Shown here one piece after another: positions 3,998 to 62,611 of a stretch of 64,000 nt of DNA. Below the pieces are notes generated by a model. That model ran no database searches and was not told the origin of the DNA. It was given only the letters and a program-made list of their open reading frames with translations. The DNA comes from an uncultured Candidatus Saccharibacteria bacterium (lineage in GTDB: Bacteria; Patescibacteriota; UBA1384; CAYJQE01). Position 1 is the first letter of the stretch. Every line of letters starts with the position of its first letter. The stretch covers positions 11,745-75,744 of the forward strand of contig CAYJQE010000001.1 in assembly GCA_964372245.1 (NCBI GenBank). Direction: 5' to 3'. Position numbers and translations under genes: made by a program.

Positions 3998-4036
3998 ACT
4001 TCGAGGCGATTCGATGTTAAAAACGAAGTTTTTTTC

Positions 4037-5077: not shown

Positions 5078-5083
5078 CAAACA

Positions 5084-6208: not shown

Positions 6209-6259
6209 CTCTTGTCGGCTGGACTTTTGGTCTTAAGACTGCTTAAATGAAGACCAATA

Positions 6260-7420: not shown

Positions 7421-8030
7421 CCTTAAAATGGTTGGCTGGGAGCTCTTTTTAGCCGGAAGAGACCGGCAATTTCTCAAAGCCGGCGGATCGCTGGCCGCAA
7501 GAAAATCAAGAATGTCAGGGGATCTAAAAACAGGTTCTTTAAGAGATTTGGCAGGCAGTTTTCTAGAGCCGTGCTCAAAAACTCTCTCCCCCTGCTTGTT
7601 CCAGCCGATTCTTGATTGTCCGATCGCGATCGAATGCCTTTTAGCTCGTTTGACCGAATGGCCAAAGGACTTTGCTTTGGCGGCGGTCGAGATAAGACCC
7701 TAGAATGCCAAGCTAGGCGATAGTTCTTTTAGATTTGCCGAGACCGAGACGCGTCGGCGGCGACTCTCGTGTTATCGAGGCCTTCAATGAGATCGAGAAA
7801 GGAGTCAATGACGAGAGTCTTTTCGACCAGGCCAGAGAGTATCGTTCAGCCGATTCTTGACCACCCGGAATGGTTGGTTGAGCGCGATTTCAACCCTCTC
7901 CCTGAAACCCTTGATTGCCTCATTCCCATTGAACAGATTGAGCGAAACAGTTCTAACTTGTGAGCGATCTGGTTGGTCGGGAGAGTGTTTTGTTGACGAC
8001 TCTCCTTTGTGGTAGTCTTTAAATTAGTGG

Positions 8031-8053
8031 TTTTTTAGTTCAGAACTAAAAAA
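8031..8053. promoter_or_regulatory. Perfect 11-1-11 palindrome TTTTTTAGTTC-A-GAACTAAAAAA upstream of a small membrane-protein gene (candidate operator)
   Basis: Exact inverted repeat seen in sequence, 21-43 bp upstream of the ATG at 8074. A 1-nt centre is too short for an RNA hairpin loop, so a dimeric protein-binding site is more likely. Confidence 0.4.
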
Positions 8054-8073
8054 AGAGAGAGGAGGTGGTAATT

Positions 8074-8400
8074 ATGGACACAACCCAAATCGGGAGATGG
8101 GCTTATGTCGCTGGCTTGATTTTGTCGGTTGTTCTTGGCTGGTACGCTGTTTCCGGCGCGACGACTATTTTAATTATTCTCGGCTTGGTCGTCGGCTTTC
8201 TCAATATTGGCGAGAAAGAGAGCACCTCATTTCTGGTCGCGGTCATCGCCCTAATGTTGGTTGGTTTGGCCGGAACCTCCTCGATCGCGGTTGCCGGAAC
8301 CGGCGATACCTTAGTAAAGATGTTTGACGCCTTTGTCAGCTTTTCAGCCGCGGCCGCGCTGGTAGTTGGAATAAAACAGGTCGTATCGCTCGCCAAGTAG
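8074..8400 (+). CDS. Small hydrophobic membrane protein (three predicted TM segments), function unknown
   Basis: ATG at 8074 is preceded by a strong SD (GGAGG at 8061-8065); an alternative GTG lies at 8065. The product MDTTQIGRWAYVAGLILSVVLGWYAVS... is almost entirely hydrophobic. Confidence 0.5.
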   Translation: MDTTQIGRWAYVAGLILSVVLGWYAVSGATTILIILGLVVGFLNIGEKESTSFLVAVIALMLVGLAGTSSIAVAGTGDTLVKMFDAFVSFSAAAALVVGIKQVVSLAK

Positions 8401-8888
8401 ATCGAGTCAATGACATCTAGGGACTTCCAAGCCGAATGGCTGGCGCCATTCAAATGCTCGACCACGCTCGTTTGAGCGCTTCCGATGGTTACACCTTTTG
8501 CCAGCTTTCCCGCGGGGTCGATCAACCTTTTGATCGAGATTTCATTAATCCCGAACCCTTCCGGGAGGAAGACGGGGGTGGTTTTTAGTTTTTCATTCGG
8601 ACCAACCCTTGGTCCGATAAATTTTGTCCAATCGCCATCATCTTCAAGCTGAAAAACGATCAGACCCCCGTCTTGTCTGAAGCCGATGAACCCAAGGTTC
8701 GGATCGGCTAACCCCTTGGAGAGAGCGATCGCGGACCGGTTGTTTCGAATTCGAGAAAGACTCAACCAGTCAGGGCCACTCTTAAAAACTTTTGGGTAAA
8801 ATCTTTTTCCTGCTGCCGCATGGTTTGCGGCATTTGTCAGCTTGATCAGCTTTTTCTGTTCCTTGTTCATTCCACAACCTCTTTTCAA
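8103..8888 (-). CDS. Hypothetical protein whose 3' third overlaps the opposite-strand membrane-protein gene
   Basis: 261-aa ORF. The N-terminal ~160 aa (MNKEQKKLIKL...FRQDGGLIVFQLEDDGDWTKF...) look protein-like. The C-terminal ~100 aa, antisense to 8103-8400, are Pro/Thr/Ala-rich, as expected from antisense reading of a hydrophobic gene. The true 3' end is uncertain. Confidence 0.4.
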   Translation of the reverse strand: MKRGCGMNKEQKKLIKLTNAANHAAAGKRFYPKVFKSGPDWLSLSRIRNNRSAIALSKGLADPNLGFIGFRQDGGLIVFQLEDDGDWTKFIGPRVGPNEKLKTTPVFLPEGFGINEISIKRLIDPAGKLAKGVTIGSAQTSVVEHLNGASHSAWKSLDVIDSIYLASDTTCFIPTTSAAAAEKLTKASNIFTKVSPVPATAIEEVPAKPTNIRAMTATRNEVLSFSPILRKPTTKPRIIKIVVAPETAYQPRTTDKIKPAT

Positions 8889-9001
8889 AAAATCCGAGCC
8901 CTGACTCCCGAAGGATGTCAGATACTCTTGACAGTTATTTTATCCGAACCAGCGGATCTGTCAACCACTGTTGACAGATCAGATAAATCGCGAGGCCGAG
9001 A

Positions 9002-10396
9002 TTAAACTTGCCAAAAGGCTCGGAGCACCACCTCCGAGAGCGCCGGGTGGATATGAATCGAATTGGTGATCGCCGAAATTTTCCCCTCGGCCGCTTTCAT
9101 TGCGGTTACAATCTCTTGAATCAAGATTGAGGCTGCTGGCCCTAAGATATGGCCGCCAAGGATTGTTCGCGCCTTTCGATCTATGATTACCTTAACAAAA
9201 CCGGTCTCTTCCTCGATAGCTTTGCCCATGCCGGTGTTTTTGTAGCGGCTTAGCCCGACTTGATAGTCGAGACCGAGATCGGTCGCCGCTTCCTCGGTCA
9301 AGCCAACGCCGGCCACTTGGGGCGAAGAAAAAATAGCGTGGGGCATGGCGGCATAGTCAACCGCCAACTTTTTCTCGCTGAAGAGATTGTTTCTGACGTA
9401 GACCGCTTCAAGGTTAGCCGAATGCTTAAAGGCGAACTTGCCGGCTATGTCGCCAAGCGCGAAGAGTCCTGGCTGACTGGTCTCCAAAAATTGGTCGGTT
9501 TTTATATAACCTTTTTCATCCAGTTCAATCTCGGCCTTCTCGGCTTGAATCAGATCGCTGTTCGGTCGGCGGCCGGTGGCGATAAGCAACTCCTCGGCCG
9601 AAATCTCCTTTTCGCCCGATCGAGATAAAAGGGTCGTGACTTTCAGACCGTTCTCGAGCCTGACTCGCTTGACGGTTGAGTTGAAGATGAGGTCAAACTT
9701 TTGACTGAAAAGTTCGGTAAAGGTTTCAGAAATCGCCCGGTCTTCCCTTTTAATCAGCCGATCACCTCGATCAACGATCGTTATCTTCGAGCCGAGCGAG
9801 CCAAAGAAGTGCGCCAGTTCAGCCGAGATATAACCGCCGCCGAGGATGATGATTGACTTAGGCAGCCGCTTGAGCCTTAAAGCCTCGGTGCTAGTCAGGC
9901 AGCCAACGCTCTCGAGACCTTCAATTGGCGGTCTGGTCGGTCTTGTGCCCGCGGCAATAAGGATTTTCTCGGCCCTTAATCGCTCGCCCGACTTGGTTTC
10001 GAGGGTTTTTCGACCGACAAAAAAACCTCGCTCTTTATAGAGTGTTAAATTGGGATTATTTCTGATCGCGACCTCGATTTTTTGGGCCTCGCCATCAACC
10101 TGCCGACTAGCTCGGCCAACAATTTTTTTAAGGTCTATCGAGTCGAGCTTGACATCCAGTCCAAAAAGATGAGCCCTCTTTATCTCCGTTAGGAGATCGG
10201 CTGCGTGAATCAGCATTTTTGAGGGAATACAGCCCCGGTTGAGACAGGTTCCGCCCATCGGCCCCTCTTCGATCAAAGCGCATTTCAACCCCTTCTGTCT
10301 CGCGGCGTAAGCCGCGACGTCGAGGCCAGAACCGGCGCCGATAACTATTAAATCATATTCTTTCATCCTGCCGCTCTTGCCTTTGCTTTTTATCAA
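9002..10396 (-). CDS. Dihydrolipoyl dehydrogenase-family FAD/NAD(P) disulfide oxidoreductase
   Basis: FAD-binding YDLIVIGAGSGL, redox-active disulfide GGTCLNRGCIPSK, second Rossmann fold IIILGGGYISAE and C-terminal HIHPALSE (the HxHPTLSE interface motif). Confidence 0.7.
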   Translation of the reverse strand: MIKSKGKSGRMKEYDLIVIGAGSGLDVAAYAARQKGLKCALIEEGPMGGTCLNRGCIPSKMLIHAADLLTEIKRAHLFGLDVKLDSIDLKKIVGRASRQVDGEAQKIEVAIRNNPNLTLYKERGFFVGRKTLETKSGERLRAEKILIAAGTRPTRPPIEGLESVGCLTSTEALRLKRLPKSIIILGGGYISAELAHFFGSLGSKITIVDRGDRLIKREDRAISETFTELFSQKFDLIFNSTVKRVRLENGLKVTTLLSRSGEKEISAEELLIATGRRPNSDLIQAEKAEIELDEKGYIKTDQFLETSQPGLFALGDIAGKFAFKHSANLEAVYVRNNLFSEKKLAVDYAAMPHAIFSSPQVAGVGLTEEAATDLGLDYQVGLSRYKNTGMGKAIEEETGFVKVIIDRKARTILGGHILGPAASILIQEIVTAMKAAEGKISAITNSIHIHPALSEVVLRAFWQV

Positions 10397-10468
10397 CCCT
10401 CTTAGAATCCCTGGTGGTAGGCTTTAGAGCTTGAACTTTCTCTTTAGTCTTCCTTGTCCCAATCTAGA

Positions 10469-12961
10469 TCAGCTTGGTCTTCCGACCAACCGCTCTTCTT
10501 TTTCGAGGACGATCCGTTTTTCAATTAATGGTTCTCCCTTCCGGACTTTGAAATTCAAGTTCTGGGCGCTAAATCCCGGCTTTGTGGTTGTGATCGAGTA
10601 GCTCCCCTCTTTGCTCAAAAATTGGAATCGGCCGGTCTTGTTGCTTACGGTTGAGCCGACAAGCCTTTCCCGACCGTCATCTTTGGTTAAAAGCCGAACC
10701 AGGGCGAGGGCGACTGGTTGGTCTTGTCTGGTGGCGATCTTGCCGAAAGGTCTTTTTTGAAAGAGAAGAATCAGTTCGATCAGCCAAAACAAGAGATAGA
10801 CGACGCCGAGGAGAATCATCCTTGTTGACCGCTCCGAATAGAACAAATAGGCGGCGCTTAAAGTGCCGGCGATGAGAAGCGGCCAGTGGAGAGCCCGGAG
10901 ATAATCGAACAGTCGCTGCAATCTAAAAGCCCGTCTGACCGAGGCTAGGCTGGCTTTTTGGTTTTGATTGAGGTTAACATCGAGAGCGATTCTTTGGTTT
11001 TCTCTCGCTACCTCGATCGGCTGGCTTTCAAAAATTTTAAAGTGAGAGTGGCGAACGATGATCTTGAAATGGCCGGTTTCGGCCAAAAAACCGAACCGGC
11101 CGGTCTCATCAGTTGTTGACTGTTCGACCACTCGGCCTTTGTCAAGATCGATCAACTGAACTATCGCTCCGAGGACCGGCAGCTCGGTCGCTCGATCTCT
11201 AATAGTTCCAAAAGGCTTCTTCTTTTTTCTTGTGACATAGCCCAAGGGGAGAAGATTCCGGAGCGGGGGCAAGCCAGTCAGGATGTTGGAACTCAAAGCG
11301 CCGGCGACCGTTGGCAACGAGAGGAGGCCGACGGCGGCCAAAAGAGCTGTCAGTTGGAGAGTCGCCTTCCTGACCAAGACTTCAAATGTCCCGCTCTTTT
11401 TTGATGTCTCTTCCTCGATGCCCGAGATTGCTTGACCGACGACCGACAGCTCAAGGAGGAAGTTTTGATCGGACGGTTTTCTCAAAATGAGCCGGCCGTT
11501 GAGAATCGAGCCGTCGTCTCCAAGTTGAGCTGAAAATTCGCCCTCGATTTCCTCTGAATCAAGGCGACCAGAGAACTCACCGATTAAGCCGCCGTCCTGC
11601 CCCAATCTAGCCTCGATCATTCCAGTTAAAACAGCAGTTTTGTCTTCTCCCTCTTTGAGATCGGATTGGTCTTGAGGAGTCGGGATGGCGAAAGGCAAAA
11701 TCTCGCCGGACACCCGCCCGTTCTTGAGAGTCAAGTCCGCGGTCACGCTTCCTTGACTGATCGGCGGACTCGTCTCGGTTAAAGAACTTGGTTCTTGAGA
11801 GTCAGAAGTGGCAACCAAGCCTTTCGAATCTTTGGCCGAAGATCCCGAACTCACTCCCGTTTTTGGTTTGGAATCGGTTTTAGAGGTCGATTTGATCGTT
11901 CCGCCAGTCGAGCCTCCAACCTCGACTGAACCGGCTATTTGACCTTGACCGCTCGATCCGGTTTTGCTTGTCGGACTAGAAGACCCGCTTCCGGTGGTCG
12001 AGCCGGTCGAACCAGTCGAGCCGGACCCGCTAGTCGAACCAGTCGAGCTGGTCCCGCCGGTCGAAGTCGTTTGGCCGCCTGATCCGGTCGTACCGCCGGT
12101 TCCCCCACTCGAGCTGGTGGTAAAGCTGCGTGAAGCGTAACCCTCGCTCCCAAGATCGTGATTGTCCCAGACGGAAACTCTCAACTCGTAACTTGTTCCG
12201 CTCTCAAGTTCGACCAATCTCGATGTGGCCGAGCTGGTGGTTTTTGAGGTGTCAAGAACCGTTGTTTGGCCCTTGAGCACAATTAAGCGGTAGGCCGATT
12301 GAGTGTCTGACGAGTTCGAGTCGGTAAAGACCCAGCTTAACGTATATTTGGTCTGGCCGGACGACGGCTCGGCGTAAGCCAAACTGGTTGCTTGAGGGGC
12401 CGAGTTTTGCTCAACCGTCACATTGACCGAGGTTCGGTATTGGTATGATGAAGGGCAGAGAGCTATGAACTCCATGATGTATTTTCCCGCGATTGGACTG
12501 TCGGTCGCGCTGCCGGATTTGATCGAGCTAACCTGCGAAACATTGTAGCGAACCAAGTCTTGACCTTGAGGGTCGGTGATAAAGAAATCGAGGTAGGCGG
12601 TCGAGGGGTTGTCCTTCAGGTTTGAGTGGGTAAAGGAGAAGTCGAGGGTTTCACCCTCAATAATCGTCAAATTGATGGCGTCGTCGAGTTTTTGATTCGG
12701 CGGCGGGGTATGGGATTTGGTTTGATCCTCGGCGGTGTGGCTTTTGCCGGGTGGGGCGTTGGCGCACATCTCGTAAGTCATGCCTTGAGCCGAGAGTCGA
12801 ATGATACGACGAACATCGATCGAAACCAAACCGAGGAAGATTAAAAAGACAGCCAAAAGGACCCCCCAGTGAATGTGGCGATGATATCGTCCCTCGTGCC
12901 AAAGTCTGTACCAGAGATGACGAGAAACGAGATGACTATGAATTCTTCTCATCATTGACAA
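10469..12961 (-). CDS. Large membrane-anchored surface protein: N-terminal TM, Fn3-like domain, Gly/Ser/Thr-rich linker, CarboxypepD_reg-like domains, C-terminal TM segments
   Basis: 830 aa with an N-terminal TM (GVLLAVFLIFLGLVSI). Fn3-like signature (YTLSW...YELRVSVWDNHD). ~60-aa GST low-complexity tract. Two D..TG.F.F..L..G.Y-type beta-sandwich motifs and C-terminal hydrophobic helices. Confidence 0.6.
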   Translation of the reverse strand: MSMMRRIHSHLVSRHLWYRLWHEGRYHRHIHWGVLLAVFLIFLGLVSIDVRRIIRLSAQGMTYEMCANAPPGKSHTAEDQTKSHTPPPNQKLDDAINLTIIEGETLDFSFTHSNLKDNPSTAYLDFFITDPQGQDLVRYNVSQVSSIKSGSATDSPIAGKYIMEFIALCPSSYQYRTSVNVTVEQNSAPQATSLAYAEPSSGQTKYTLSWVFTDSNSSDTQSAYRLIVLKGQTTVLDTSKTTSSATSRLVELESGTSYELRVSVWDNHDLGSEGYASRSFTTSSSGGTGGTTGSGGQTTSTGGTSSTGSTSGSGSTGSTGSTTGSGSSSPTSKTGSSGQGQIAGSVEVGGSTGGTIKSTSKTDSKPKTGVSSGSSAKDSKGLVATSDSQEPSSLTETSPPISQGSVTADLTLKNGRVSGEILPFAIPTPQDQSDLKEGEDKTAVLTGMIEARLGQDGGLIGEFSGRLDSEEIEGEFSAQLGDDGSILNGRLILRKPSDQNFLLELSVVGQAISGIEEETSKKSGTFEVLVRKATLQLTALLAAVGLLSLPTVAGALSSNILTGLPPLRNLLPLGYVTRKKKKPFGTIRDRATELPVLGAIVQLIDLDKGRVVEQSTTDETGRFGFLAETGHFKIIVRHSHFKIFESQPIEVARENQRIALDVNLNQNQKASLASVRRAFRLQRLFDYLRALHWPLLIAGTLSAAYLFYSERSTRMILLGVVYLLFWLIELILLFQKRPFGKIATRQDQPVALALVRLLTKDDGRERLVGSTVSNKTGRFQFLSKEGSYSITTTKPGFSAQNLNFKVRKGEPLIEKRIVLEKEERLVGRPS

Positions 12962-13117
12962 TTATATCTTACCATCCGGCCCAACTTTGATCACGACTGT
13001 TTTTTGAGCGGGGGCCAAACCTTACCAATCGCCCGAGTCTAAGACCATTGCCCGATCAATTTCAGTCTGTTCATCAATCGAGTAGGCTATACTCGATGTT
13101 ATTGTTAAATTGAGGCG

Positions 13118-17822: not shown

Positions 17823-17875
17823 TCTTAAATCCGCCGGCTTTTAATCGCTAACTCCTTTCCGGTAAGATAAAAAAG

Positions 17876-18337
17876 ATGAAAGTCAAAGTCGGGGAGATCG
17901 CGCCGGACTTCTCTTTGCCCGATCAAAACAACAAAAAACATCGACTTTCCGATTACCGAGGCGCTTTCGTGCTCCTGTATTTTTACCCGAAAGATGACAC
18001 TCCCGGTTGCGCCACCGAGGCTATGACGATCCGAGACGTCTTTCAAGATTTTAAGGCGAAAAAGGTGGTCGTTTTGGGGGTAAGCGGCGATTCGGTCGAG
18101 AGTCACAAAAAATTTGCCCAAAAATACGCTCTCCCCTTCGTTCTTTTAGCTGATTCGGAAAACTCGGTTCTTGAGCGATACGGCGTCTTCGAGAAAAAAA
18201 ATCTCTTTGGCAAGAAGTCTCTCGGCATCAAACGATCGTCAGTCTTGATTGATCAGGCCGGAATAATTTCCAAGATCTACGAAACCGTTAAGCCCGAGCT
18301 TCACGCTGGTCAGGTCCTTGAAGACCTGCCTCTCTAA
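17876..18337 (+). CDS. bcp: Thiol peroxidase of the AhpC/TSA family (Bcp-type peroxiredoxin)
   Basis: Peroxidatic Cys motif PKDDTPGCATEA; 153 aa. Confidence 0.8.
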   Translation: MKVKVGEIAPDFSLPDQNNKKHRLSDYRGAFVLLYFYPKDDTPGCATEAMTIRDVFQDFKAKKVVVLGVSGDSVESHKKFAQKYALPFVLLADSENSVLERYGVFEKKNLFGKKSLGIKRSSVLIDQAGIISKIYETVKPELHAGQVLEDLPL

Positions 18338-22673: not shown

Positions 22674-23867
22674 ATGGTGGTTAGTTCGAATCAATCGTTT
22701 TTATCGCGACGGACTGAAAAGATCATCGGTCGCGACTGGCTCGAATCGGCGATTAGACAAAAAAAGAGATTGCGAATTTATTTCGGTATTGACCCGACGG
22801 CGCCGAATATCCATCTCGGTTCGGCGGTCTCTCTCCTAAAGTTGCGCGAGTTTCAAGAAGCCGGCCATCGGGTGATTCTCCTGATTGGCGATTTTACGGC
22901 TTTGGTTGGCGATCCTTCCGGTCACGCCAGAGAAAGGACCAGACTTTCGGAGCGGGAGGTCGAGGAAAACTTGGCCTTTTATCTCGAGCAGGCCTCAAAG
23001 ATTCTTGATCCAGAAAAACTTGAAGTCAGAAAGAACTCCGAATGGTTGTCTAAGCTCACCCTCAAGGATTTTATCGGCTTTGGCTATCATTTCAACGCCC
23101 ATCAGATCGCTGAAAGGAGTCTCTTTCAGGAGCGGAAAAAATCTGGTCAAAGACTGTCAGTCGCCGAGTTTCTCTATCCTCTCCTTCAGGCAATTGACGC
23201 TTTGCGACTGAAAGCCGATCTTCAGATCGGCGGGAGCGATCAAGAATTCAACATGATCGCTGGCCGCGATCTTATCAGACGACTCGAAAATCGAGAGATG
23301 GCGATTATGATCACGCCCTTGATTCTTGGGACCGACGGTCGGAAGATGAGCAAAACCTTGGGCAATAGTATTAATCTGGTTGACGAGGCCGATGAGATGT
23401 TTGGTCGAATTATGAGTTTGCCCGATGACCTAATCTATCCCTACTTCGATTTGACGACCGACATTTCAGAAGAGGAACTTTTGGCGATTCAATCTGACCT
23501 TAAAGAACCAAAAAACCGGATGCTCGTGAAATTGAAATTGGCCAATCAGATTGTCAAACAGTTTCATGGCCGAGAACCGGCCTTTAGGGCTGAGGAGGAC
23601 TTTAAGCGGCGTTTTTCAAAAAGGGAGATGCCGCTTCAGCTAAAAAGCCTTCAAGTAAAGAAGAGGAAAGGCCGATCGCTGGTTGAGCTTTTGGTCGAGA
23701 GTGGTCTAGCCAAGTCGAAAGCTCAAGCCAAAAGATTGATAGCCGAAGGGGGAGTTAAGATTGACGGCAATCAAGTTGATGCCGATCAGACTATTGATTC
23801 CGATAAGCTCTCGAAATTTGTTCTTCAAGTCGGTCGAAGACGAATTCGAGAGATTGTATTTCAATAA
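22674..23867 (+). CDS. tyrS: Tyrosine--tRNA ligase
   Basis: HIGH-type motif (PTAPNIHLGS), KMSKS (KMSKTLG) and a C-terminal S4 domain. Confidence 0.85.
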   Translation: MVVSSNQSFLSRRTEKIIGRDWLESAIRQKKRLRIYFGIDPTAPNIHLGSAVSLLKLREFQEAGHRVILLIGDFTALVGDPSGHARERTRLSEREVEENLAFYLEQASKILDPEKLEVRKNSEWLSKLTLKDFIGFGYHFNAHQIAERSLFQERKKSGQRLSVAEFLYPLLQAIDALRLKADLQIGGSDQEFNMIAGRDLIRRLENREMAIMITPLILGTDGRKMSKTLGNSINLVDEADEMFGRIMSLPDDLIYPYFDLTTDISEEELLAIQSDLKEPKNRMLVKLKLANQIVKQFHGREPAFRAEEDFKRRFSKREMPLQLKSLQVKKRKGRSLVELLVESGLAKSKAQAKRLIAEGGVKIDGNQVDADQTIDSDKLSKFVLQVGRRRIREIVFQ

Positions 23868-24017
23868 TTTTCGGCTTGGAATTTCTCTTTCGCTTGCGGG
23901 CCGTGAGGGCGATTAGTTAAAAGTTCCTTATTCGCGAGAAGACTTTGAGGTTTTTCTCGCGGCCGGTCTCCTTTCAAACGAGCCGCGTTTTTCTTACGCG
24001 CCGGTTCAAAGAAGAAG

Positions 24018-24786
24018 TAGTATATACTATCGATCGGGCAGACTTAAGCATCAATTGACGATCCACCGAGCATACCTCAACCGGTTGAATAGTAGTATAT
24101 ACTAGTGAAAGACGGTGTTGCCTTCAGCTAAGATCTCGATTGGTTTAAGGCGGAACAAATAGCTAAAAAATGTAGTATATACTACTTTTTGCTCATAACT
24201 CGCGTTCATTCGCGACCGACTGATTAACGTCAAAAAATGAGACCGCAAGCGCGGGCAGTAGTATATACTATCGAGCGACCGCTCTGATTTCTGATCGCGA
24301 TCTCGTCTGGAACCAGACCGAGTGGTAAAATAGTATATACTATTATTTAAAGCCTCAGTTTTTTAAGGGCCGCAAACCGTTGTTCAATTGGTGGCGAGCG
24401 ACCCGTCGGAGGGCCTAACATACTCTGAACTTAACAGTCTCAATCTCGAATCATGAGTCTCTGGAAGTCAACACCCAATTTGGTTGAAATAGTATATACT
24501 ATTTTCTTTGAGTTTTATGCTGGCCGAATTGCCAAGCGGAGACACACGTTCGGCCAGTCAGGGCGGGGCGAAAACTACTTTGAGCTTTCTAGAAGGCTAT
24601 CTGGCGCAGGTGGGCTTCAATTGGCGCGACAGCCATGTAGTATATACTAGTGTTTTTTAGTCTCTCTCCGAGCGGTCGCGGCTCTGGATTTTGCCATTCG
24701 CCAGCTTGATATTTTTTGGTGATTGCCGGTCAGCAAAACGCTCGGTACCTTCAGGACCGTCTTCTTCTTCAATGTAGTATATACTA
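24018..24786. repeat. Array of eight exact copies of the 12-bp perfect palindrome TAGTATATACTA with non-repetitive spacers
   Basis: - Copies at 24018-24029, 24093-24104, 24173-24184, 24259-24270, 24331-24342, 24490-24501, 24638-24649 and 24775-24786.
- Extended form (A/T)GTAGTATATACTA(C/T/G)(T/C); copies 3 and 8 are the full 14-bp palindrome GTAGTATATACTAC.
- Spacings are 75, 80, 86, 72, 159, 148 and 137 bp.
- The region 23868-24646 has no ORF longer than 65 aa and is flanked by convergent tyrS and trmD. Copy 7 spans the trmD stop codon and copy 8 lies inside the trmD 3' end. Confidence 0.85.
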
Positions 24787-25354
24787 CCGGACGGGTATAT
24801 TGAGGGTACTCGAGGAGTCTTTTTTTTGTTTCCTCGTCTTTAATGGTGAACGACTCAATCGTTGACGATTCGGCTTTGCCGAGGCCACCGGGGGCCAAGC
24901 GAGTCAGGGCGTCAATCAAAGTCATGGCCGGCAATTCACCGCCCGTCAAAACATAATCGCCGACCGAGATCGCTTCATCAACTATTTTGTGAACCCGATG
25001 GTCAACGCCCTCGTAGTGGCCAGCGACCAGAACGAGATGTTCGTATTTTGACAATCGCTCGACTTTTTTCTGGTTCAAGAGTTTGCCCTTCGGGTCAAGC
25101 AAAATCAGGCGGCAATTTCTTTTTATTTTTAAGTTTGAAATGGCGCGGTCTATAACATCGACCCGAAGGATCATTCCCCGACCGCCGCCGCAGGGTCGGT
25201 CGTCAACGGTTTTATGCTTATCAAGGGCGAACTCTCTAATGTCTACCGCCTCGACGGAGATCGCTTTCCTCTTGACCGCCTTACCGATAACGCTTATTGA
25301 GGACCAATAACCGATGAGCTCGGGAAAAAGAGTCAGAACGGAAAACTTCTTCAC
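24647..25354 (-). CDS. trmD: tRNA (guanine37-N1)-methyltransferase
   Basis: SPOUT/TrmD motifs (VLTLFPE, DDRPCGGGRGMIL, YTRP...LLTGNH). Confidence 0.85.
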   Translation of the reverse strand: MKKFSVLTLFPELIGYWSSISVIGKAVKRKAISVEAVDIREFALDKHKTVDDRPCGGGRGMILRVDVIDRAISNLKIKRNCRLILLDPKGKLLNQKKVERLSKYEHLVLVAGHYEGVDHRVHKIVDEAISVGDYVLTGGELPAMTLIDALTRLAPGGLGKAESSTIESFTIKDEETKKRLLEYPQYTRPVVYTTLKKKTVLKVPSVLLTGNHQKISSWRMAKSRAATARRETKKH

Positions 25355-25412
25355 CCGCCAGCACTACTAAGGACCCGGCCTCCGGGCCTGATTTTTGGTC
25401 AGAAAAAACGCT

Positions 25413-25784
25413 TCAAGCCAGAAGGTCGGTCGGAACGTCGTCTTCAAGTTTTTCTTCTTTGGCCTCTTCCGCCGCCGGCTGGTCTGCCGATTGATCTTTC
25501 TGGTCGTCGGCTTTTCTCGATCCGCCTGTGCCTCCCTCGGGCTCGACTATTTTCAGGTTAACCCGGGCGTTTCGCTTAGCGCCGAAAACGCTAAGAAGCT
25601 TCCTGATTGCTTTAGCCGTGTTGCCTTCCCTGCCGATGACCGTTCCCATATCTTCCGGATCAACGTGGAGTTCGATGAGCACACCGAGCTGGTCAATCGT
25701 CCGGTCGGTCTTGACACTCTCCGGCTTGCCAACCAACCCCCTGACGATTGATTCGACAAACTCCTGATCGGTGATTTCTGCCAT
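25413..25784 (-). CDS. KH-domain RNA-binding protein (YlqC-like) with an acidic C-terminal tail
   Basis: KH GXXG loop (VIGREGNTAKAIRKL). Lies between rpsP and trmD, as in rpsP-ylqC-(rimM)-trmD operons. Confidence 0.7.
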   Translation of the reverse strand: MAEITDQEFVESIVRGLVGKPESVKTDRTIDQLGVLIELHVDPEDMGTVIGREGNTAKAIRKLLSVFGAKRNARVNLKIVEPEGGTGGSRKADDQKDQSADQPAAEEAKEEKLEDDVPTDLLA

Positions 25785-26197
25785 TGTTCTCCTTTCTTAG
25801 TGTTACTTTCCGCTTGTTTTTGAGTTTGAACTTCTGGTTCTCGCGAGCGGTCTTCGGTCGGAGCTTGGACTTGAACTGACTTATCGGCCGTTCCGTTTTG
25901 GTCTGACTTTGCCTCGGCTGAACTTTTTTTTCGGATCAAGACCTTTCGCTTGGGCGACTGAATGACCTCGTGCTTAACCAGTAGATTGTGGACCGTGTCG
26001 CTTGGCCTGGCTCCCTTTTTCAACCAGCCAAGAATCTTCTCTTGGTCTATTTTGAAAACCTTGGGCCGGGCGGCCGGCTGATAGTAGCCAACCTGGTCAA
26101 CAAAACGGCCCTTGACCGGGGCGGTTGACTCGGCGACAACCAAGCGAAAGTGAGGCTTCGACTTTCGACCCGTCCGCTTCAGTCTTATTTTCAGCAT
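25553..26197 (-). CDS. rpsP: 30S ribosomal protein S16 with a long low-complexity C-terminal extension; the 3' 230 bp overlap the KH gene in another frame
   Basis: ATG at 26197 with a GGGAG SD 8 nt upstream. The S16 core is MLKIRLKRTGRKSKPHFRLVVAESTAPVKGRFVDQVGYYQP... There is no stop until 25553, so the Lys/Gln-rich tail runs into the KH gene. This is either a real overlap or a frame error. Confidence 0.7.
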   Translation of the reverse strand: MLKIRLKRTGRKSKPHFRLVVAESTAPVKGRFVDQVGYYQPAARPKVFKIDQEKILGWLKKGARPSDTVHNLLVKHEVIQSPKRKVLIRKKSSAEAKSDQNGTADKSVQVQAPTEDRSREPEVQTQKQAESNTKKGEQWQKSPIRSLSNQSSGGWLASRRVSRPTGRLTSSVCSSNSTLIRKIWERSSAGKATRLKQSGSFLAFSALSETPGLT

Positions 26198-26247
26198 CGT
26201 TTTCTCCCGTCTTAAGTTTCTCAAGTTTAGCAAGGGAAGGCGAATTG

Positions 26248-27141
26248 TCAAGAGCCGCCAAAGAGAGTTTTCAAAATCTGATCGGTCATGAGTCTTTGAT
26301 AGCCGTTTCGAAACTCTGCCCCGCCGATCTCTTTTTTGCCTTCCGGCTTGACTCTCAAGTTAACCAGCCGGCCGGATTGGCTGTCGTAGTCGGATGAGGC
26401 GATTAAAACTCTCCGGCCGTCTTTTAGAAAAAAATAAGTTCCGGGCCAGGGATTTAAGGCCTTGATCATTCGCCAGATCTTTGCTCTCGAATCGGTGGCA
26501 AAATCAATCAGCCCGTCCTCTTTTTTCAACAACTTGGTCGCCGGCTTTTCCGTTTTCGGTTGTTCTTTAGCCTTCAGTTTGCCGGTTAAATAGAGGGGAA
26601 GGTATTTTTTTATCATTTCGGCTGACAGGTCGGCCAGCTTGGCCGAGAGCTTCAAAAAAGTGTCGTCTTTTTCAACCGCGATTTTCTCTATCGCTAGAAT
26701 TGGACCGGTGTCCATACCCTCGTCGATCAACATCAAAGAAACGCCGGTCAACCGATCGCCCTTTAACAAACAGGCTTGAATCGGCGAGGGACCACGATAT
26801 TTTGGCAGAATCGAGGGATGGACGTTGATCGTTTTGAAGGTCGGTATCTCGATCAGGTCTTTCGGGAGAATTTTGCCGTATGCCGCAACCAAAATCAGGT
26901 CAGGCTTCTCTCTTCGGATAACCGCTATCGCTTCTGGGTCCTTTTTGAAACTTGTCGGTTGGAAAAGTTTTATTCCTTCGCGCTTGGCTCTCGCCTTGAC
27001 CGGTGTGTCAATTCTCTTTAGGCCTCGACCCCGCGGCTTGTCTGGCTCAGTCACGATCAGACTCGGTCGCAGGTCAAGCTTTAAAAGCGCCTCGAGCGCC
27101 GGCAGGGCAAAGCTTGGTGTCCCAAAAAAGATGATCTTCAC
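26248..27141 (-). CDS. fmt: Methionyl-tRNA formyltransferase
   Basis: N-terminal formyltransferase domain (MKIIFFGTPSFALPAL, NVHPSILPKYRG) and a C-terminal Fmt domain. Confidence 0.85.
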   Translation of the reverse strand: MKIIFFGTPSFALPALEALLKLDLRPSLIVTEPDKPRGRGLKRIDTPVKARAKREGIKLFQPTSFKKDPEAIAVIRREKPDLILVAAYGKILPKDLIEIPTFKTINVHPSILPKYRGPSPIQACLLKGDRLTGVSLMLIDEGMDTGPILAIEKIAVEKDDTFLKLSAKLADLSAEMIKKYLPLYLTGKLKAKEQPKTEKPATKLLKKEDGLIDFATDSRAKIWRMIKALNPWPGTYFFLKDGRRVLIASSDYDSQSGRLVNLRVKPEGKKEIGGAEFRNGYQRLMTDQILKTLFGGS

Positions 27142-30568: not shown

Positions 30569-31165
30569 TTAAAAGAGGCTTGAGATAATACTGATCGTGT
30601 AACGTGGCCGGGCAATTGGGCTGAAATCCTTGATGGGGAAAACAACCCGCCAGGCTCGGCCGACGACCTGTTTTTTTTCGATCGGGCCGAAAATTCGCGA
30701 GTCTTTCGAGGCTCCCCGATTGTCGCCGAGAACGAAAAACTGATTTTCGCCGAGGTTTATCTCTTTTTTCTCGAGCGGGCTGTCGCCGATCAAGGTCTTT
30801 GTCCCGTTTTGAAGGTAGCGTTCTTGGAGGACGAAGCCCCTCGATCGGTCACGATTTTTGATTATGATCTTATTGTCTTCTATCCTGACGGTTTCGCCCG
30901 GCAGTCCGATCACCCGTTTGATCAACTCGTCGTGGCTCTCGAGGCTCGGCTGGAAGACAACGATATCGCCTCGCTTGAACTCCTTGAAGAGTCGAGTCCA
31001 ACGTTCAACCAAAATGTATTGATTGTTGTGAAGTATCGGTTCCATCGAGGCGCCCTGAATGATGAAGGGTTGGACGATAAAGACTCGGATTAAATAAAAG
31101 AAAGCAACGACAAAGACAACGGTCTTCGTAAACTCCCAGATCCCCTGCAAAACCTTTGTTTTCAT
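30569..31165 (-). CDS. lepB: Signal peptidase I
   Basis: N-terminal TM helix, catalytic Ser box GASMEP, Lys box KRVIGLPGE and GDNRGASKDSR. Confidence 0.85.
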   Translation of the reverse strand: MKTKVLQGIWEFTKTVVFVVAFFYLIRVFIVQPFIIQGASMEPILHNNQYILVERWTRLFKEFKRGDIVVFQPSLESHDELIKRVIGLPGETVRIEDNKIIIKNRDRSRGFVLQERYLQNGTKTLIGDSPLEKKEINLGENQFFVLGDNRGASKDSRIFGPIEKKQVVGRAWRVVFPIKDFSPIARPRYTISIISSLF

Positions 31166-31304
31166 TTATTCACCGCTAGGGCTTTCTTTTCAACTCGCTC
31201 CGCTCGTATATGTAAAGAAAGCTCTGACCAAAAAAGTCTTCATAAACTCCCAGACGCTTTGTAAAATCCTTGATTTCACTTACTCATTCTAACGCTTTCT
31301 TTCC
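31122..31304. repeat. Imperfect tandem duplication (two ~70-bp units, period 114 bp) covering the lepB start codon region and its upstream sequence
   Basis: Unit 1 (31122-31191) and unit 2 (31236-31304) are ~80% identical (gtcttcRtaaactcccaga...gctttcttt). Unit 1 contains the lepB ATG; unit 2 carries a decayed copy (ATG AGT AAG TGA). Confidence 0.5.
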
Positions 31305-38407: not shown

Positions 38408-38431
38408 AAAAAGGCTCCTGACCCCTTTTTC
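38408..38431. repeat. 24-nt element AAAAAGGCTCCTGACCCCTTTTTT (copy 1 of 2 exact copies)
   Basis: Identical 24-mer at 43209-43232. It forms an A-run/T-run-flanked weak hairpin (AAAAAGG...CCTTTTT). Here it sits at the edge of a CT-rich tract upstream of uvrA. Confidence 0.6.
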
Positions 38432-38497
38432 CCCCTTTTTTCTTTTTCCCCTCTTTTTCCCCTTCCCCTTTTTCCCCTTTTTGACCCCTTTTTTTGT
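38421..38497 (+). repeat. Polypyrimidine (C/T) simple-sequence tract made of (C4-5 T5-6) units
   Basis: ~77 bp of accccttttttccccctttttt... in the divergent bactofilin/uvrA intergenic region. It generates the spurious K/G-rich minus-strand ORF 38174-38536. Confidence 0.6.
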
Positions 38498-43166: not shown

Positions 43167-43208
43167 TCGTGACTTGGCTGTCGCGACATGCAGATGCGAG
43201 AACGGCGC

Positions 43209-43232
43209 AAAAAGGCTCCTGACCCCTTTTTT
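43209..43232. repeat. 24-nt element AAAAAGGCTCCTGACCCCTTTTTT (copy 2), followed by a second GACCCCTTTTTT
   Basis: Exact match to 38408-38431. Located between the 3' ends of tRNA-Gln (plus strand) and the methyltransferase gene (minus strand). A possible bidirectional terminator-like element. Confidence 0.6.
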
Positions 43233-43246
43233 ACTTGACCCCTTTT

Positions 43247-45316: not shown

Positions 45317-47239
45317 TTGATGGCGGAAAAGGATCCCGATCGTTTGTTTGAGGGTCTCAACGATCGTCAAAAAGAGGCGGTTAAGACGACCGAAGGACCG
45401 ACCCTGATTTTAGCCGGCGCCGGCTCGGGCAAAACGAGGACTCTGACAACAAGAATTGCCTATCTGATCAGTCGCAAAAAGGTCTCTCCAACCAACATTT
45501 TAGCCGTCACTTTTACCAACAAAGCGGCGGGCGAGATGGCCGATCGGGTTCGGACTCTTCTCGGCGTCGAGGGCAATCGAGGGACGCTCCCCTGGCTTGG
45601 AACCTTTCACAGTATCTGCGTCAAAATCCTTCGGAGCGAGCTTGACTCGAGCCGACTTCCCCACTCTCGTTATTTTACAATTTACGACGCGAGCGATCAG
45701 CTAACGCTTATCAGACGGATTATGCGGGAAGAACAAATTGACCAGAAGCAGTACAACCCGAGAATGATCCGAGCTCAAATCTCTAGCGCCAAAAATGATC
45801 TTCTGGATCCAAAGAATTACCTTGAATCGGCCGAGAGCCGGCTCCAGGCAACCATCGGGCTGGTATATACTCGTTATCAAAAAGGCCTGGAAAGGTCCAA
45901 CGCCTTTGATTTTGACGACCTGATCAATCAGACGATCAGGCTTTTTGAGGACGACCACTCGGTTCTCGAAAAGTACCAAAAAATTTTTCTATATATACTG
46001 GTTGATGAGTACCAAGACACAAATCGAGGTCAGTATATACTAATCAAAAAATTAGCCCAGAAGAGGAAAAACATCTTTGTGGTTGGCGACGACTGGCAAG
46101 CCATCTATGCCTTTAGAGGGGCTGATTACAAAAATATTTTGAGCTTCGAATCGGACTATCCCGAGGCGAAGGTCGTCAAGCTCGAAGAAAATTATCGCTC
46201 GACGAAACAGATCCTTGACGCCGCGGCGGGCGTGATCGGACAGAATCGAGAGCGGTCGGAAAAAAAGCTTTTTACCAAGAACCGGCTTGGTCGGAAAATC
46301 AGAGCGGTTGAGTGCCAGTCGGAGCTCGAAGAGGGCGAGTTTATCGTCAATCAGGCGCGGTTTATAGAGGCCGAAGGCCGGGACAACCTGAACGATTTGG
46401 TCGTCCTCTATCGGATCAACGCTCAATCAAGGCAGATCGAAGAGGCTCTCCTAAAGGCTGGCGTCCCCTACCGGATTATCGGTTCGGTCCGATTCTACGA
46501 TCGAAAAGAGGTCAAGGACATTCTCGGCTATTTGACGGCGATCATCAATCCGGCCGATCTGGTTGGCTTTGAACGGATAGTCAATGTCCCGCCTAGAAAA
46601 ATCGGCCAAAAAACTCTGCTGGCTTATCGCCGTTCCCTGATCCTTGGCGATCCGCCGCCGCCAAAAGTCGAGGTCTTTCTCGCTCTGCTCGCCAAGCTTC
46701 GAAGATCGGCCGCCGATCTAAAACCGGAAAAGGCGATCGAGTTCATCTTGAAGTCTGTCGGTTATCAAGACTGGCTCAACGACGGGACGCTTGAAGCCGA
46801 GAGCCGACTCGAGAATCTCAAGGAGCTTCAAAATGTCGCCAGTCAACACGAGACGATCGAGGACTTTTTGGAACGAGTCGCTCTGATTCAGGAGACCGAT
46901 CTCTCAAGAGAGAGCGCTCAAGGTCGGGAGCGGACCGAGGCGGTCAGCCTGATGACGATCCACGCCGCCAAAGGACTTGAGTTCAAAAGAGTGGTCATTG
47001 TCGGTTTCGAAGAGAATATTTTTCCTCACAGTCGGGCCCGGCTTAACCCCGAAGATTTAGAAGAGGAGAGGCGACTTTGTTATGTCGCGATGACTCGGGC
47101 CAAAGAGGAGCTCTCGTTGGTTTACAGCCTCTCGCGGCGTCAATTTGGTCAATTCTTTGCCAATCCTCCATCTCGCTTCTTTGATGAAATACCAAGCCAC
47201 CTTCTCGACAATCAACAGTGGCTTGGCGGCTTGACCTAA
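45317..47239 (+). CDS. uvrD: ATP-dependent DNA helicase of the UvrD/PcrA/Rep family
   Basis: SF1 motifs: I AGAGSGKTRTL, Ia, II VDEYQDTN, III GDDWQAIYAFRGA, IV, V, VI VAMTRAKEEL. 640 aa, so lacks the long PcrA C-terminal tail. Confidence 0.85.
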   Translation: MMAEKDPDRLFEGLNDRQKEAVKTTEGPTLILAGAGSGKTRTLTTRIAYLISRKKVSPTNILAVTFTNKAAGEMADRVRTLLGVEGNRGTLPWLGTFHSICVKILRSELDSSRLPHSRYFTIYDASDQLTLIRRIMREEQIDQKQYNPRMIRAQISSAKNDLLDPKNYLESAESRLQATIGLVYTRYQKGLERSNAFDFDDLINQTIRLFEDDHSVLEKYQKIFLYILVDEYQDTNRGQYILIKKLAQKRKNIFVVGDDWQAIYAFRGADYKNILSFESDYPEAKVVKLEENYRSTKQILDAAAGVIGQNRERSEKKLFTKNRLGRKIRAVECQSELEEGEFIVNQARFIEAEGRDNLNDLVVLYRINAQSRQIEEALLKAGVPYRIIGSVRFYDRKEVKDILGYLTAIINPADLVGFERIVNVPPRKIGQKTLLAYRRSLILGDPPPPKVEVFLALLAKLRRSAADLKPEKAIEFILKSVGYQDWLNDGTLEAESRLENLKELQNVASQHETIEDFLERVALIQETDLSRESAQGRERTEAVSLMTIHAAKGLEFKRVVIVGFEENIFPHSRARLNPEDLEEERRLCYVAMTRAKEELSLVYSLSRRQFGQFFANPPSRFFDEIPSHLLDNQQWLGGLT

Positions 47240-49693: not shown

Positions 49694-49770
49694 CTCGACC
49701 CTTGACGACAAAAGGCCTTTTGAACTACAATGGGTTTTGTAGTACCTCATAATGTCAGGGAGGAGTCAAA

Positions 49771-51896: not shown

Positions 51897-52994
51897 TTGA
51901 TGAAACCGAAGCGGGTTGCCTTGGTTCATGAATATTATCTCGCGGCAAAACAGGGCGGCGCCGAGCGAGTCCTTCGAGACTTTGTCGAGCTTTTCCCCGA
52001 AGCCGAGCTCTTTTTTCTGCTGGCTGACGAAGATCAACTGAAAAAAGATTTTCCAAACTCTCGCTATCGGCTCTCTTTCTTGCAGGCCAAGCCCTTTGTT
52101 CAGTCTCGGCTTGATTGGTATCGGGCTCTGATGCCAATGGCGATTGAAGATTTCGATTTCCGAGGCTTTGAACTTGTGATTTCGAACTCTCATTCCTACG
52201 CCAAAGGCATTATCACCAAACCGGAAACGACTCATATCTGCTACTGTTTGACGCCGACTCGCTTTCTCTGGCTCAATCAACAGGATCACCTTAATCGAGC
52301 CGGTTTTTCTTGGCTCGAACGGCGACTGGCCAGGCCGGTTCTTGATTTCCAACGCCGTTGGGATAAGGCTGCCTCGATGCGGGTTGATCACTATGTTGGC
52401 ATCTCGAAGGCGGTCCAGAAGAGGATCAAGGACCTCTATGATCGTTCTTCTCGTCTCATTTACCCGGCGATAGATATCAAAGAATTTCAGGCCGGAGATA
52501 AGGATGGCGACTTCTTTCTCTTGGTTGCCCGGCTCGAGCCGCACAAGATGGTTGATCTCGCTATCTTGGCCTTTAACCGACTTGGCCGACCGCTCAAAAT
52601 AGTCGGCGTCGGCAAAGATGAGGCCAAACTGAAAAGGATGGCGAAAGCCAATATAGAGTTTCTCGGTCGGGTTTCTGAACCGGAACTCAAAGAGCTTTAT
52701 CAGCGATGTCGAGCCTTTATCTTCCCGCAGGAAGAAGACTTTGGCTTGACTGCCCTCGAGGCTCAAGCCTCTGGCAGGCCAGTCATAGCCTTCGGGGCTG
52801 GCGGGGCGCTTGAGACAATAATTGACCAGAAAACTGGTATATACTTCTCACGGCAAACTTTTGAGTCGCTTATCGCGGTGGTTAAACGGTTCGAGAGGAA
52901 AAGCTGGGATAAGAAGACGATTAGAGTTCAGGCCGAGCAATTCGGAAAAAAGTCTTTCAAAAAGGCCTGGTTGAGCTACATCGCAAGCCTTTGA
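51897..52994 (+). CDS. Glycosyltransferase family 4
   Basis: GT4 C-terminal domain (FFLLVARLEPHKMVDLAILAF, EDFGLTALEAQASGRPVIA). Confidence 0.75.
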   Translation: MMKPKRVALVHEYYLAAKQGGAERVLRDFVELFPEAELFFLLADEDQLKKDFPNSRYRLSFLQAKPFVQSRLDWYRALMPMAIEDFDFRGFELVISNSHSYAKGIITKPETTHICYCLTPTRFLWLNQQDHLNRAGFSWLERRLARPVLDFQRRWDKAASMRVDHYVGISKAVQKRIKDLYDRSSRLIYPAIDIKEFQAGDKDGDFFLLVARLEPHKMVDLAILAFNRLGRPLKIVGVGKDEAKLKRMAKANIEFLGRVSEPELKELYQRCRAFIFPQEEDFGLTALEAQASGRPVIAFGAGGALETIIDQKTGIYFSRQTFESLIAVVKRFERKSWDKKTIRVQAEQFGKKSFKKAWLSYIASL

Positions 52995-58582: not shown

Positions 58583-58642
58583 TCATCGGCAAGCGAACGA
58601 GGTGATAAAAAGACCAAAATCTTTGATAAAGGTTGTATAATT

Positions 58643-62080: not shown

Positions 62081-62611
62081 GTGTCAAAGATTATCGTCAT
62101 TCAAGCCAGCCTCAACCGAGGCTCGAGGACCGCGATTGTCGCCAAGGAGGCAGAAGCTCTTCTTCTAGAAAAAGCCGTTCAGACCGAAACGATTGATCTG
62201 CGGGAGTTAAAACTTGAGTTTGCCGACGGCCGAAGGATTGAGGACTATGGTCGAGACCTGAAAACTGTCTACCGAAAGCTTGCCGTCGCCAAGGGCTTTG
62301 TGTTGGCCTTTCCGGTTTATAGTTTTTCTCATTCCGGCGTTGTCAAGAACTTCATTGACATTGTTTGCGGGGCGATGCAAGGCAAATTTATCGGCCTGAT
62401 TGAAAACTCCGGCGGTCGTCTTTCCTATCTGGCGGCCGCCGAAATGATGAAGCTTTTGGCCTTTGATTTCGACATCACGACCGTTCAGCCAGTAGTATAT
62501 ACTAGTTCTATGAGCTTTGATAATGGCAAACTGGTCGACCAGAAGGCGTTCGAAAAACTCGACAAAATGACCGACCGGTTGCTAGAATTTGTCGAGAAGC
62601 TCTCTAATTAA
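62081..62611 (+). CDS. NAD(P)H-dependent FMN reductase / flavodoxin-like-fold oxidoreductase
   Basis: GTG start. FMN_red-like MSKIIVIQASLNRGSRT...FVLAFPVYSFSHSGVVKNFIDIV. Contains an exact copy of the TAGTATATACTA palindrome at 62493-62504. Confidence 0.7.
   Translation: MSKIIVIQASLNRGSRTAIVAKEAEALLLEKAVQTETIDLRELKLEFADGRRIEDYGRDLKTVYRKLAVAKGFVLAFPVYSFSHSGVVKNFIDIVCGAMQGKFIGLIENSGGRLSYLAAAEMMKLLAFDFDITTVQPVVYTSSMSFDNGKLVDQKAFEKLDKMTDRLLEFVEKLSN

Follow-up and report, generated by a model that had tools for sequence, protein, structure and literature searches.

Several described DNA elements gather multiple copies of a short protein-binding site at a single locus. The sopC locus of the F plasmid consists of 12 repeats of 43 bp that each contain an inverted repeat of 16 bp; like EBV oriP FR, it presents numerous identical, regularly spaced palindromic protein sites, serves maintenance and conserves the whole repeat unit. 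Type Ib centromere-operators (e.g., TP228 ParG/parH, pSM19035 omega/parS) are made of short, AT-rich inverted sub-sites that occur in multiple copies, are read by a dimer and build one complex; these sub-sites are contiguous, with a register of 7-11 bp, and immediately precede parA. Chromosomal parS/ParB clusters contain perfect clustered palindromes, with in-gene copies accommodated by codon choice, and have an architectural rather than a regulatory role. In E. coli, datA is a non-coding block of ~1 kb between housekeeping genes where a high-affinity cluster of DnaA boxes is found with unrelated DNA between the sites.

The genomes of CPR/Patescibacteria are tiny and encode few recognisable regulators, genetic systems are lacking for the group, and its cis-acting chromosome elements are almost undocumented. 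The palindrome array described here, which was detected in a 64,000-nucleotide stretch of chromosome from an uncultured, deep-branching member of the group, analysed as a whole (hereafter the window), is a clear and reproducible example of such an element. While known centromeres and operator arrays are built of contiguous or fixed-period repeats, the palindromes of this locus are separated by unique spacers of 60-147 bp.

The palindrome array at the tyrS-trmD junction

The 12-bp palindrome TAGTATATACTA occurs nine times in exact form in the window, eight times within positions 24018-24786 and once at 62493, and a single additional copy with one mismatch is present at 46031. The first-pass annotation had reported eight copies in ~770 bp and nine in 64 kb; both counts were confirmed, and none of 100 dinucleotide-preserving shuffles of the window yielded a copy. 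The word is built as two inverted TAGTA half-sites, and its central TATATA is identical in all eight array copies. The 8-bp core GTATATAC was observed 12 times in the window against 0.02 expected, an excess which is in part explained by the depletion of TA, a dinucleotide heavily under-represented in this genome (rho 0.46). All but one of the 15 TATATA hexamers of the window lie within the TAGTATATACTA motif or its near variants. Outside the array, only four cores were found in 63 kb of the window, and none in the 29 kb to its left, including 5 kb beyond the left edge of the window. The palindrome array is a real feature of the chromosome, and the excess of its motif is extreme. A literature search for the motif string TAGTATATACTA returned nothing relevant.

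The array is flanked by the convergent genes tyrS and trmD, both transcribed towards it (Table 1). Previous placement of the array in a convergent tyrS-trmD gap holds as far as the convergence is concerned, but the array is not wholly intergenic since palindrome 7 runs into the stop codon of trmD and palindrome 8 falls within this gene. Elsewhere, the window consists of housekeeping chromosome, with mraY, ftsW, murG, murB, genes for PBPs, recJ, radA, rpsP, khpA, fmt, def and priA, along with uvrA, rnhB, the RNase P RNA gene, tRNA-Gln, uvrD, an FMN-reductase gene, sodA, and gyrB and gyrA, the latter two located 32-38 kb from the array.

Table 1. Positions, in window coordinates, of the array palindromes, the flanking genes and the copies of the word found inside genes
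Feature	Positions	Strand	Remarks
tyrS (tyrosyl-tRNA synthetase), left flank	22674..23867	+	Pfam tRNA-synt_1b (1.2e-71), S4, SYY_C
Non-coding gap	23868..24646		779 bp, longest in window; holds palindromes 1-6 and most of 7
Palindrome 1	24018..24029		TAGTATATACTA
Palindrome 2	24093..24104		Unrelated 12-bp palindrome TCAACCGGTTGA 4 bp upstream
Palindrome 3	24173..24184		Extends to 14-bp GTAGTATATACTAC; A6 and T5 runs at flanks
Palindrome 4	24259..24270		TAGTATATACTA
Palindrome 5	24331..24342		Extends to 16-bp AATAGTATATACTATT
Palindrome 6	24490..24501		Extends to 18-bp AAATAGTATATACTATTT
Palindrome 7	24638..24649		Final three bases form the stop codon of trmD (TAG, minus strand)
trmD (tRNA m1G37 methyltransferase), right flank	24647..25354	-	Pfam tRNA_m1G_MT (1.5e-47), residues 24-228 of 235
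Palindrome 8	24775..24786		Inside trmD; V-V-Y-T as GTA GTA TAT ACT; extends to 14 bp
10/12 copy TGGTATATACTC	45861..45872		Inside uvrD/pcrA; encodes L-V-Y-T
TA-run variant CTATATATACTG	45988		Third in uvrD/pcrA
11/12 copy CAGTATATACTA	46031..46042		Inside uvrD/pcrA
10/12 copy TGGTATATACTT	52835..52846		Inside glycosyltransferase gene
Exact TAGTATATACTA	62493..62504		In FMN-reductase gene, 128 bp upstream of sodA; conserved V-V-Y-T, rare codons

Start-to-start distances within the array are 75, 80, 86, 72, 159, 148 and 137 bp, which matches the ranges of 72-86 bp for the first five copies and 137-159 bp for the last three given in the first-pass annotation. Its conserved core of 14-16 bp was not confirmed: only the 12 bp are invariant, the preceding base being G in six copies and A in the other two, and perfect palindromes longer than 12 bp (14-18 bp) are found at four of the eight positions. 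Nor does the spacing appear to be independent of helical phase, as had been proposed. Phases of the array copies cluster at the 10.5-bp helical period (R=0.73, the maximum over periods of 9-12 bp), with p ~0.01 if 10.5 bp is fixed a priori and ~0.1 if 10.2-10.8 bp is scanned, and six of the seven adjacent spacings deviate by no more than 0.19 turn from an integer. This clustering is suggestive, though not proof, of an array whose copies lie mostly on one face of the helix. Palindrome 8 keeps the array spacing going inside trmD, 137 bp from palindrome 7. Together with the use of the trmD stop codon by palindrome 7, this indicates that position outweighs the gene boundary.

The array is 100% identical in the Logan assemblies of runs ERR3478686 and ERR4904391, whereas the assembly of ERR4904390 shows a G>A change at 24640, inside palindrome 7, as the sole difference over 4.4 kb. 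In the assemblies of all three runs the unique flanks of the array run on into tyrS and trmD. The first-pass annotation had asked that the assembly be verified; with the same array in three independent assemblies, one base aside, the array is not an assembly artefact, and as nothing was found in favour of an assembly or sequencing error, we regard its probability as next to nil. The mutated palindrome 7 of one strain (ERR4904390) implies that single copies are dispensable.

The same three assemblies bear on site-specific recombination. In a shufflon- or cassette-like array, the palindromes would serve an invertase or resolvase as crossover sites, allowing inversion or excision of the intervening segments. 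Identical sites with unrelated segments between them would suit such a system, perfect identity is typical of crossover cores, and a palindromic site permits both inversion and deletion. Yet the order and orientation of the segments are the same in all three independent assemblies, and the segment between palindromes 7 and 8 contains the last 42 codons of the essential trmD. Moreover, the known sites of tyrosine and serine recombinases are typically longer than 12 bp, and no gene for a recombinase was detected in the window. We consequently hold recombination to be distinctly unlikely.

As claimed before, the spacers are unrelated to each other: their mean pairwise similarity corresponds to a z of 0.47, and a single pair out of 36 exceeds 2.5. 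An old tandem duplication was rejected, as the spacers retain no residual similarity. Some pairwise similarity of the flanks is seen for copies 1 and 4, 2 and 5, and 6 and 7. The GC content of the spacers (0.48) is ordinary for intergenic DNA of this genome. A blastn search of the spacers against 50,697 phage and 72,556 plasmid records gave no match, and they share no similarity with the rest of the window, with the viral contig L094 described below or with the other loci fetched. The absence of a plausible ORF from the gap was likewise borne out, the longest being of 65 aa without a Pfam match. No hidden gene, L19, pseudogene or RNA was found in the gap, and neither was a tRNA or tmRNA. A search of the gap against Rfam gave no hit at gathering score and only chance-level matches at E up to 10, which disposes of the covariance-model explanation that had been named for the region. 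The region is devoid of coding or structured-RNA signals.

A function at the RNA level was considered as well. The palindromes would then belong to a 3' extension of the tyrS or trmD transcript and would pair with one another or be cleaved to yield spacer RNAs, as with CRISPR or ToxI. The repeat-spacer layout and the unique spacers would be compatible with such an array, and in a fold of the whole region the palindromes do pair with each other (z of -3.9 and -5.6 relative to shuffles). However, a favourable z arises automatically when eight 12-mers are complementary to each other, and hairpins of single repeats are weak (-0.6 to -5.0 kcal/mol). In addition, no cas or toxin genes were detected using Pfam, the spacers lack phage or plasmid matches and are of uneven length, and both the in-gene copies and the helical phasing point to DNA. 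An RNA array is therefore highly improbable.

Scanning the array for promoters and terminators revealed nothing beyond chance, and no terminator at any palindrome. A cluster of -10-like elements, binding RNA polymerase or giving rise to short bidirectional transcripts, with the in-gene copies as internal promoters, is very unlikely in our opinion. The word does offer TAGTAT, TATATA and TATACT, which overlap on both strands and are among the few -10-like words of this TA-poor genome, its copy at 62493 precedes sodA, and a spacing of ~75-86 bp is close to the footprint of RNA polymerase. Against this, a -35 partner is found in one of 16 orientations, as expected by chance, the apparent promoters of real genes in this DNA are of the TTGACA type with TAnnnT and do not use this word, and most copies have no downstream gene.

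Copies of the word inside genes

The copies located in coding sequences allow the DNA word to be distinguished from the peptide it encodes. GTA represents 3.1% of the Val codons in 35 genes of the window, and the exact copies of trmD and of the FMN-reductase gene are both written GTA GTA TAT ACT. All three V-Y-T tripeptides in these 35 genes are written GTATATACT, and the core GTATATAC is carried at 5 of the 17 peptide positions able to accommodate it. We compared the in-gene counts with 2000 synonymous-codon shuffles in which the protein sequences and the pooled codon usage were held fixed. The core was observed five times against 0.21 expected and the 12-mer TAGTATATACTA twice against 0.001 expected, and all shuffles stayed below both counts.

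The V-V-Y of TrmD aligns with a conserved x-x-Y/F after YTRP (alignment A1), while the QPVVYTS of the FMN reductase is common to a 47%-identical homologue (alignment A2), the DNA of which reads GTG GTT TAT ACC and hence encodes VVYT without the palindrome. Based on these two alignments, the V-V-Y-T peptides are ancestral and not insertions, and a 12-bp insertion into the genes was rejected. Since the in-gene copies are written with rare codons in a TA-poor genome, the motif is selected as DNA and not as protein or RNA. The in-gene copies are under DNA-level selection, and this selection is strong enough to override codon usage in essential genes.

These copies also bear on the REP/BIME-like element family suggested by the first-pass annotation, a family of mobile palindromes that would be spread by a RAYT-type HUH transposase. 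The convergent junction is of the intergenic kind, and six of the eight array copies start with GTAG, as do REP heads. REPs and BIMEs are nonetheless confined to extragenic DNA; they are imperfect palindromes, GC-rich and 20-40 bp long, that form a stable hairpin, are present in hundreds of copies per genome and come with a cognate RAYT transposase, whereas the array word is 12 bp long, AT-only, weak as a hairpin and partly intragenic, with copies in the trmD, uvrD, glycosyltransferase and FMN-reductase genes that result from codon choice and not from insertion. As no RAYT or other transposase gene is present in the window either, nor a RAYT gene in the 5 kb to its left, this explanation seems extremely improbable.

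The way in which permissive codon positions are filled is also reminiscent of uptake-sequence drive. If the 12-mer were a word preferred by a competence receptor, uptake and recombination would fill permissive positions with it, and the array would be a hotspot or by-product of the process. Such words are known from Neisseria (DUS) and the Pasteurellaceae (USS), have a length of 10-12 bp and accumulate in permissive reading frames, which is also true of the array word given its use in every V-Y-T tripeptide, its occupancy of permissive coding positions and its excess over synonymous shuffles. Two to three copies moreover lie in uvrD, a genome-maintenance gene, and CPR bacteria are believed to rely on taking up DNA. 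However, known DUS and USS occur at ~1 per kb on both strands and form no phased multi-copy array, and to our knowledge none of them is a palindrome, while cores outside the array are as scarce as reported above and absent from the 29 kb to its left. Drive alone would not be expected to produce a phased array of eight copies that continues into a gene. We consider an uptake signal unlikely; it would be the first such signal in the CPR/Patescibacteria.

Relatives of the locus and the same word in other genomes

Searches with TrmD and TyrS in 5.8 billion proteins and in JGI metagenomes retrieved nothing between 54% (TrmD) or 47% (TyrS) identity and 100%. The nearest named relatives of the two proteins are from Patescibacteria (Berkelbacteria, Levybacteria and others), at ~45-54% identity. 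None of 80 distant trmD loci carries a comparable array.

Among 185,579 species genomes (one genome per species), two copies of the word 55-85 bp apart were found at nine unrelated loci, none of them from this species. Five of these or of matching viral loci (L006, L007, L008, L010 and L105) correspond to one mobile element, which is also present in gut contigs deposited in GenBank as 'Bacteriophage sp.'. In this element, two TAGTATATACTA copies lie 70-140 bp upstream of parA, amid densely packed TAGTA/TACTA pentamers; parA is followed by a gene coding for a ParG-like ribbon-helix-helix (RHH) protein. Both the position and the style of these copies are those of a classic type Ib partition centromere-operator, as in TP228 ParG/parH and pSM19035 omega. 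The phage element thereby provides a lead that a small protein acting as a dimer may recognise the TAGTATATACTA word, but no evidence of homology with the tyrS-trmD array, and tblastn searches of the window with the ParA and RHH proteins of the phage gave no match.

A Prevotellaceae MAG contains six AGTATATACT palindromes with a 22-bp period and unique short spacers in a convergent gap, and in a Sphingomonas MAG (68% GC) a pair of the word, 67 bp apart, likewise occupies a convergent gap. No informative neighbours such as a transcription factor were found at the Sphingomonas, Dehalococcoidia and Salinivirgaceae loci, leaving the parA-RHH element as the only informative case. Viral contig L094 bears ten dispersed copies, mostly intergenic. 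It was rejected as a phage of this organism, as it shares no sequence with the window and its tetranucleotide composition is uncorrelated with that of the window (r=-0.16). Matches in Campylobacter-type phages were also discarded, since the word there lies within true tandem repeats of 73-85 bp, which are a different thing.

Proposed function and comparison with known systems

On balance, we favour the interpretation of the array as a cluster of high-affinity sites for a putative dimeric DNA-binding protein, with a centromere-like or titrating role. The array would be a cis-acting DNA element offering eight identical sites to a putative sequence-specific protein, which would bind each 12-bp palindrome as a dimer or a dimer of dimers. 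Bound copies, ~7-8 helical turns or twice that distance apart, would lie mostly on one face of the helix and could be joined into a single large nucleoprotein complex where the 3' ends of tyrS and trmD meet, while satellite sites would be provided by the weaker or isolated copies that codon choice has placed in genes. Such a complex may serve as a centromere-like or organising landing pad, or as a titrating store for the protein. Protein binding, its dimeric mode and the function of the complex are our inferences. An architectural role is most likely, and fits better because both flanking genes end, rather than start, at the array; regulation of tyrS and trmD is less likely.

The first-pass annotation had likened the array to sites of dimeric proteins, a view which gains support from the in-gene copies written with rare codons and from the 12-mers of the parA-RHH element. 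Pfam searches found no HTH, RHH, ParA or ParB protein among the ORFs of the window as a candidate binder. Binding sites are seldom as uniform as the eight copies, which are perfectly identical down to the central TATATA; such identity would also fit a copy-paste mechanism or the target of a nuclease or methylase. A bolder proposal, which we regard as doubtful, is that the array forms the core of a novel, non-parS chromosomal system of centromere-like or organising type in a deep-branching lineage of the Patescibacteria, possibly with an RHH dimer occupying the eight phased sites and the satellites. Should the locus prove centromere-like or titrating, it would reveal a non-canonical chromosome organisation in a major uncultured radiation.

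The array was also compared with other repeat and site families. Like CRISPRs, it alternates identical repeats with unique spacers. CRISPR repeats are however at least 23 bp long (range about 23-50 bp) and, as a rule, have conserved ends or form a stable hairpin, as opposed to 12 bp and an unstable hairpin in the array, and CRISPR spacers are near-constant in length, some matching mobile elements, unlike those of the array. The array word is also present inside genes, and no cas genes were found near the array, Pfam scans of the window ORFs returning housekeeping genes only. With its 12-bp repeat, uneven spacers and lack of cas genes, and with repeats that are not in tandem, the array was rightly described as unlike both a CRISPR and a tandem repeat. 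Intrinsic terminators combine a GC-rich stem with a U tract, in contrast to the weak stems of the array.

Several of the families first put forward for the array did not withstand closer analysis. Iterons were dismissed, as the array is palindromic and not made of direct repeats, is variable in spacing without a fixed short period (~22 bp being typical), and has no rep gene. The spacers, judging by their GC content, do not provide the AT-rich unwinding element typical of origins. A terminus-associated array is at odds with the cumulative GC skew, which climbs from 0.09 to 2.79 over the window without a turn; consequently, the array is neither an origin nor a terminus. As for a parS-type site, the 16-bp consensus TGTTNCACGTGAAACA has no match in the window at up to three mismatches.

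The remaining systems are those in which palindromic sites are read by proteins. The sites of Noc (NBS), SlmA (SBS) and MatP (matS) are, similarly, palindromes of 12-16 bp often located in genes; they number tens per genome, and we know of no eight-copy array of any of them within 1 kb. The sopC and EBV oriP FR arrays share with the tyrS-trmD locus the multiplicity and regularity of their sites, but conservation at this locus is limited to the 12-mer, and its spacers are unrelated. Type Ib centromere-operators come close in the nature of their sub-sites. Nevertheless, the array 12-mers are isolated, 72-159 bp apart, with only one TAGTA pentamer in the array outside of them, and the array is chromosomal, flanked by tyrS and trmD, with no parA, parB or RHH gene in the 64 kb. 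The datA locus has the same layout in a similar setting, although both the motif and the protein are different, and a DnaA-box cluster was rejected because matches are below chance. Chromosomal parS clusters are comparable in their clustered perfect palindromes, their codon-chosen copies in genes and their architectural role, but have an unrelated sequence and are far less dense than this array with its eight copies in 0.77 kb. The array fits no known family, and its nearest kinds are arrays of protein sites, namely partition centromeres, parS clusters and datA.

Strain variation and gene order at the array locus, and composition of the window

Over 4.4 kb, the window and the corresponding locus of a second strain (L003) differ solely by a G>A change at window position 24640, which falls within palindrome 7 of the TAGTATATACTA array. 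Two genes commonly found with the neighbouring trmD operon (24647-26251, order rpsP-khpA-trmD) are missing: rimM, and rplS, which as a rule comes directly after trmD. That position is taken here by the array.

TA is strongly under-represented across the whole window (observed/expected ratio, rho, 0.46). Outside the array, 30 perfect palindromes of at least 12 bp were counted vs ~16 expected at random, an approximately twofold excess; one example is TGACCGATCGATCGGTCA at 37049. Rare codons are present in all three motif-like elements clustered inside uvrD/pcrA.

Coordinates of the features discussed, in the window and in other contigs
Feature	Location	Remarks
Three TA-run, motif-like elements (TGGTATATACTC, CTATATATACTG, CAGTATATACTA)	window 45861-46042	within uvrD/pcrA
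Recurring sequence AAAAAGGCTCCTGACCCCTTTTT	window 38408-38493 and 43208-43251	
51-nt direct repeat	window 31122-31172 and 31236-31286	78% identity
Two further gaps, 600-660 bp	window 49694-50353 and 58583-59192	
TAAGAT/TATAAT-like boxes	window 17863-17876 and 12961-12975	
Six AGTATATACT palindromes	L011:7369-7489, also contig end of L005	Prevotellaceae MAG
Ten copies of the array palindrome TAGTATATACTA	L094 (IMGVR_UViG_3300031933_000066), 3473-12445	phage contig
TAGTA/TACTA pentamer run	L007:4560-4716	also L006, L008, L010, L105; GenBank MT836705

Other repeats, gaps and start-codon boxes

The 51-nt direct repeat, whose units are 114 bp apart, covers the 5' end of a signal peptidase gene and the region preceding it. 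TGACCCCTTTTT, found four times at the positions listed for AAAAAGGCTCCTGACCCCTTTTT, neighbours a long polypyrimidine tract 5' of uvrA and also occurs directly 3' of tRNA-Gln. The two further gaps contain no convincing genes, only small ORFs, none of which has a Pfam match; the RNA search covering them was an Rfam scan at gathering score. In several genes (ahpC, an 830-aa ORF), a TAAGAT/TATAAT-like box is located at most ~15 nt from the start codon, a proximity that hints at leaderless mRNAs.

Palindromes in other genomes

The AGTATATACT palindromes of the Prevotellaceae MAG recur with a period of exactly 22 bp, are separated by spacers of 10-12 bp, each unique, and sit 3' of ubiE in a convergent gap. 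In layout, this array is iteron- or centromere-like. On the phage contig, whose composition is unrelated to that of the window, the TAGTATATACTA copies follow one another at ~1 kb, mostly between small genes, and probably serve the phage as a stoperator-like or early-promoter-like regulatory site.

The pentamer run is hosted by a gut phage or phage-plasmid element, which is 100% identical among Bacteroides, Prevotellamassilia and Acetatifactor MAGs. There, TAGTA/TACTA pentamers are densely packed immediately 5' of an operon encoding ParA and a ParG-like RHH protein, and the run includes two exact copies of TAGTATATACTA. The run probably constitutes a type Ib centromere-operator not described before.
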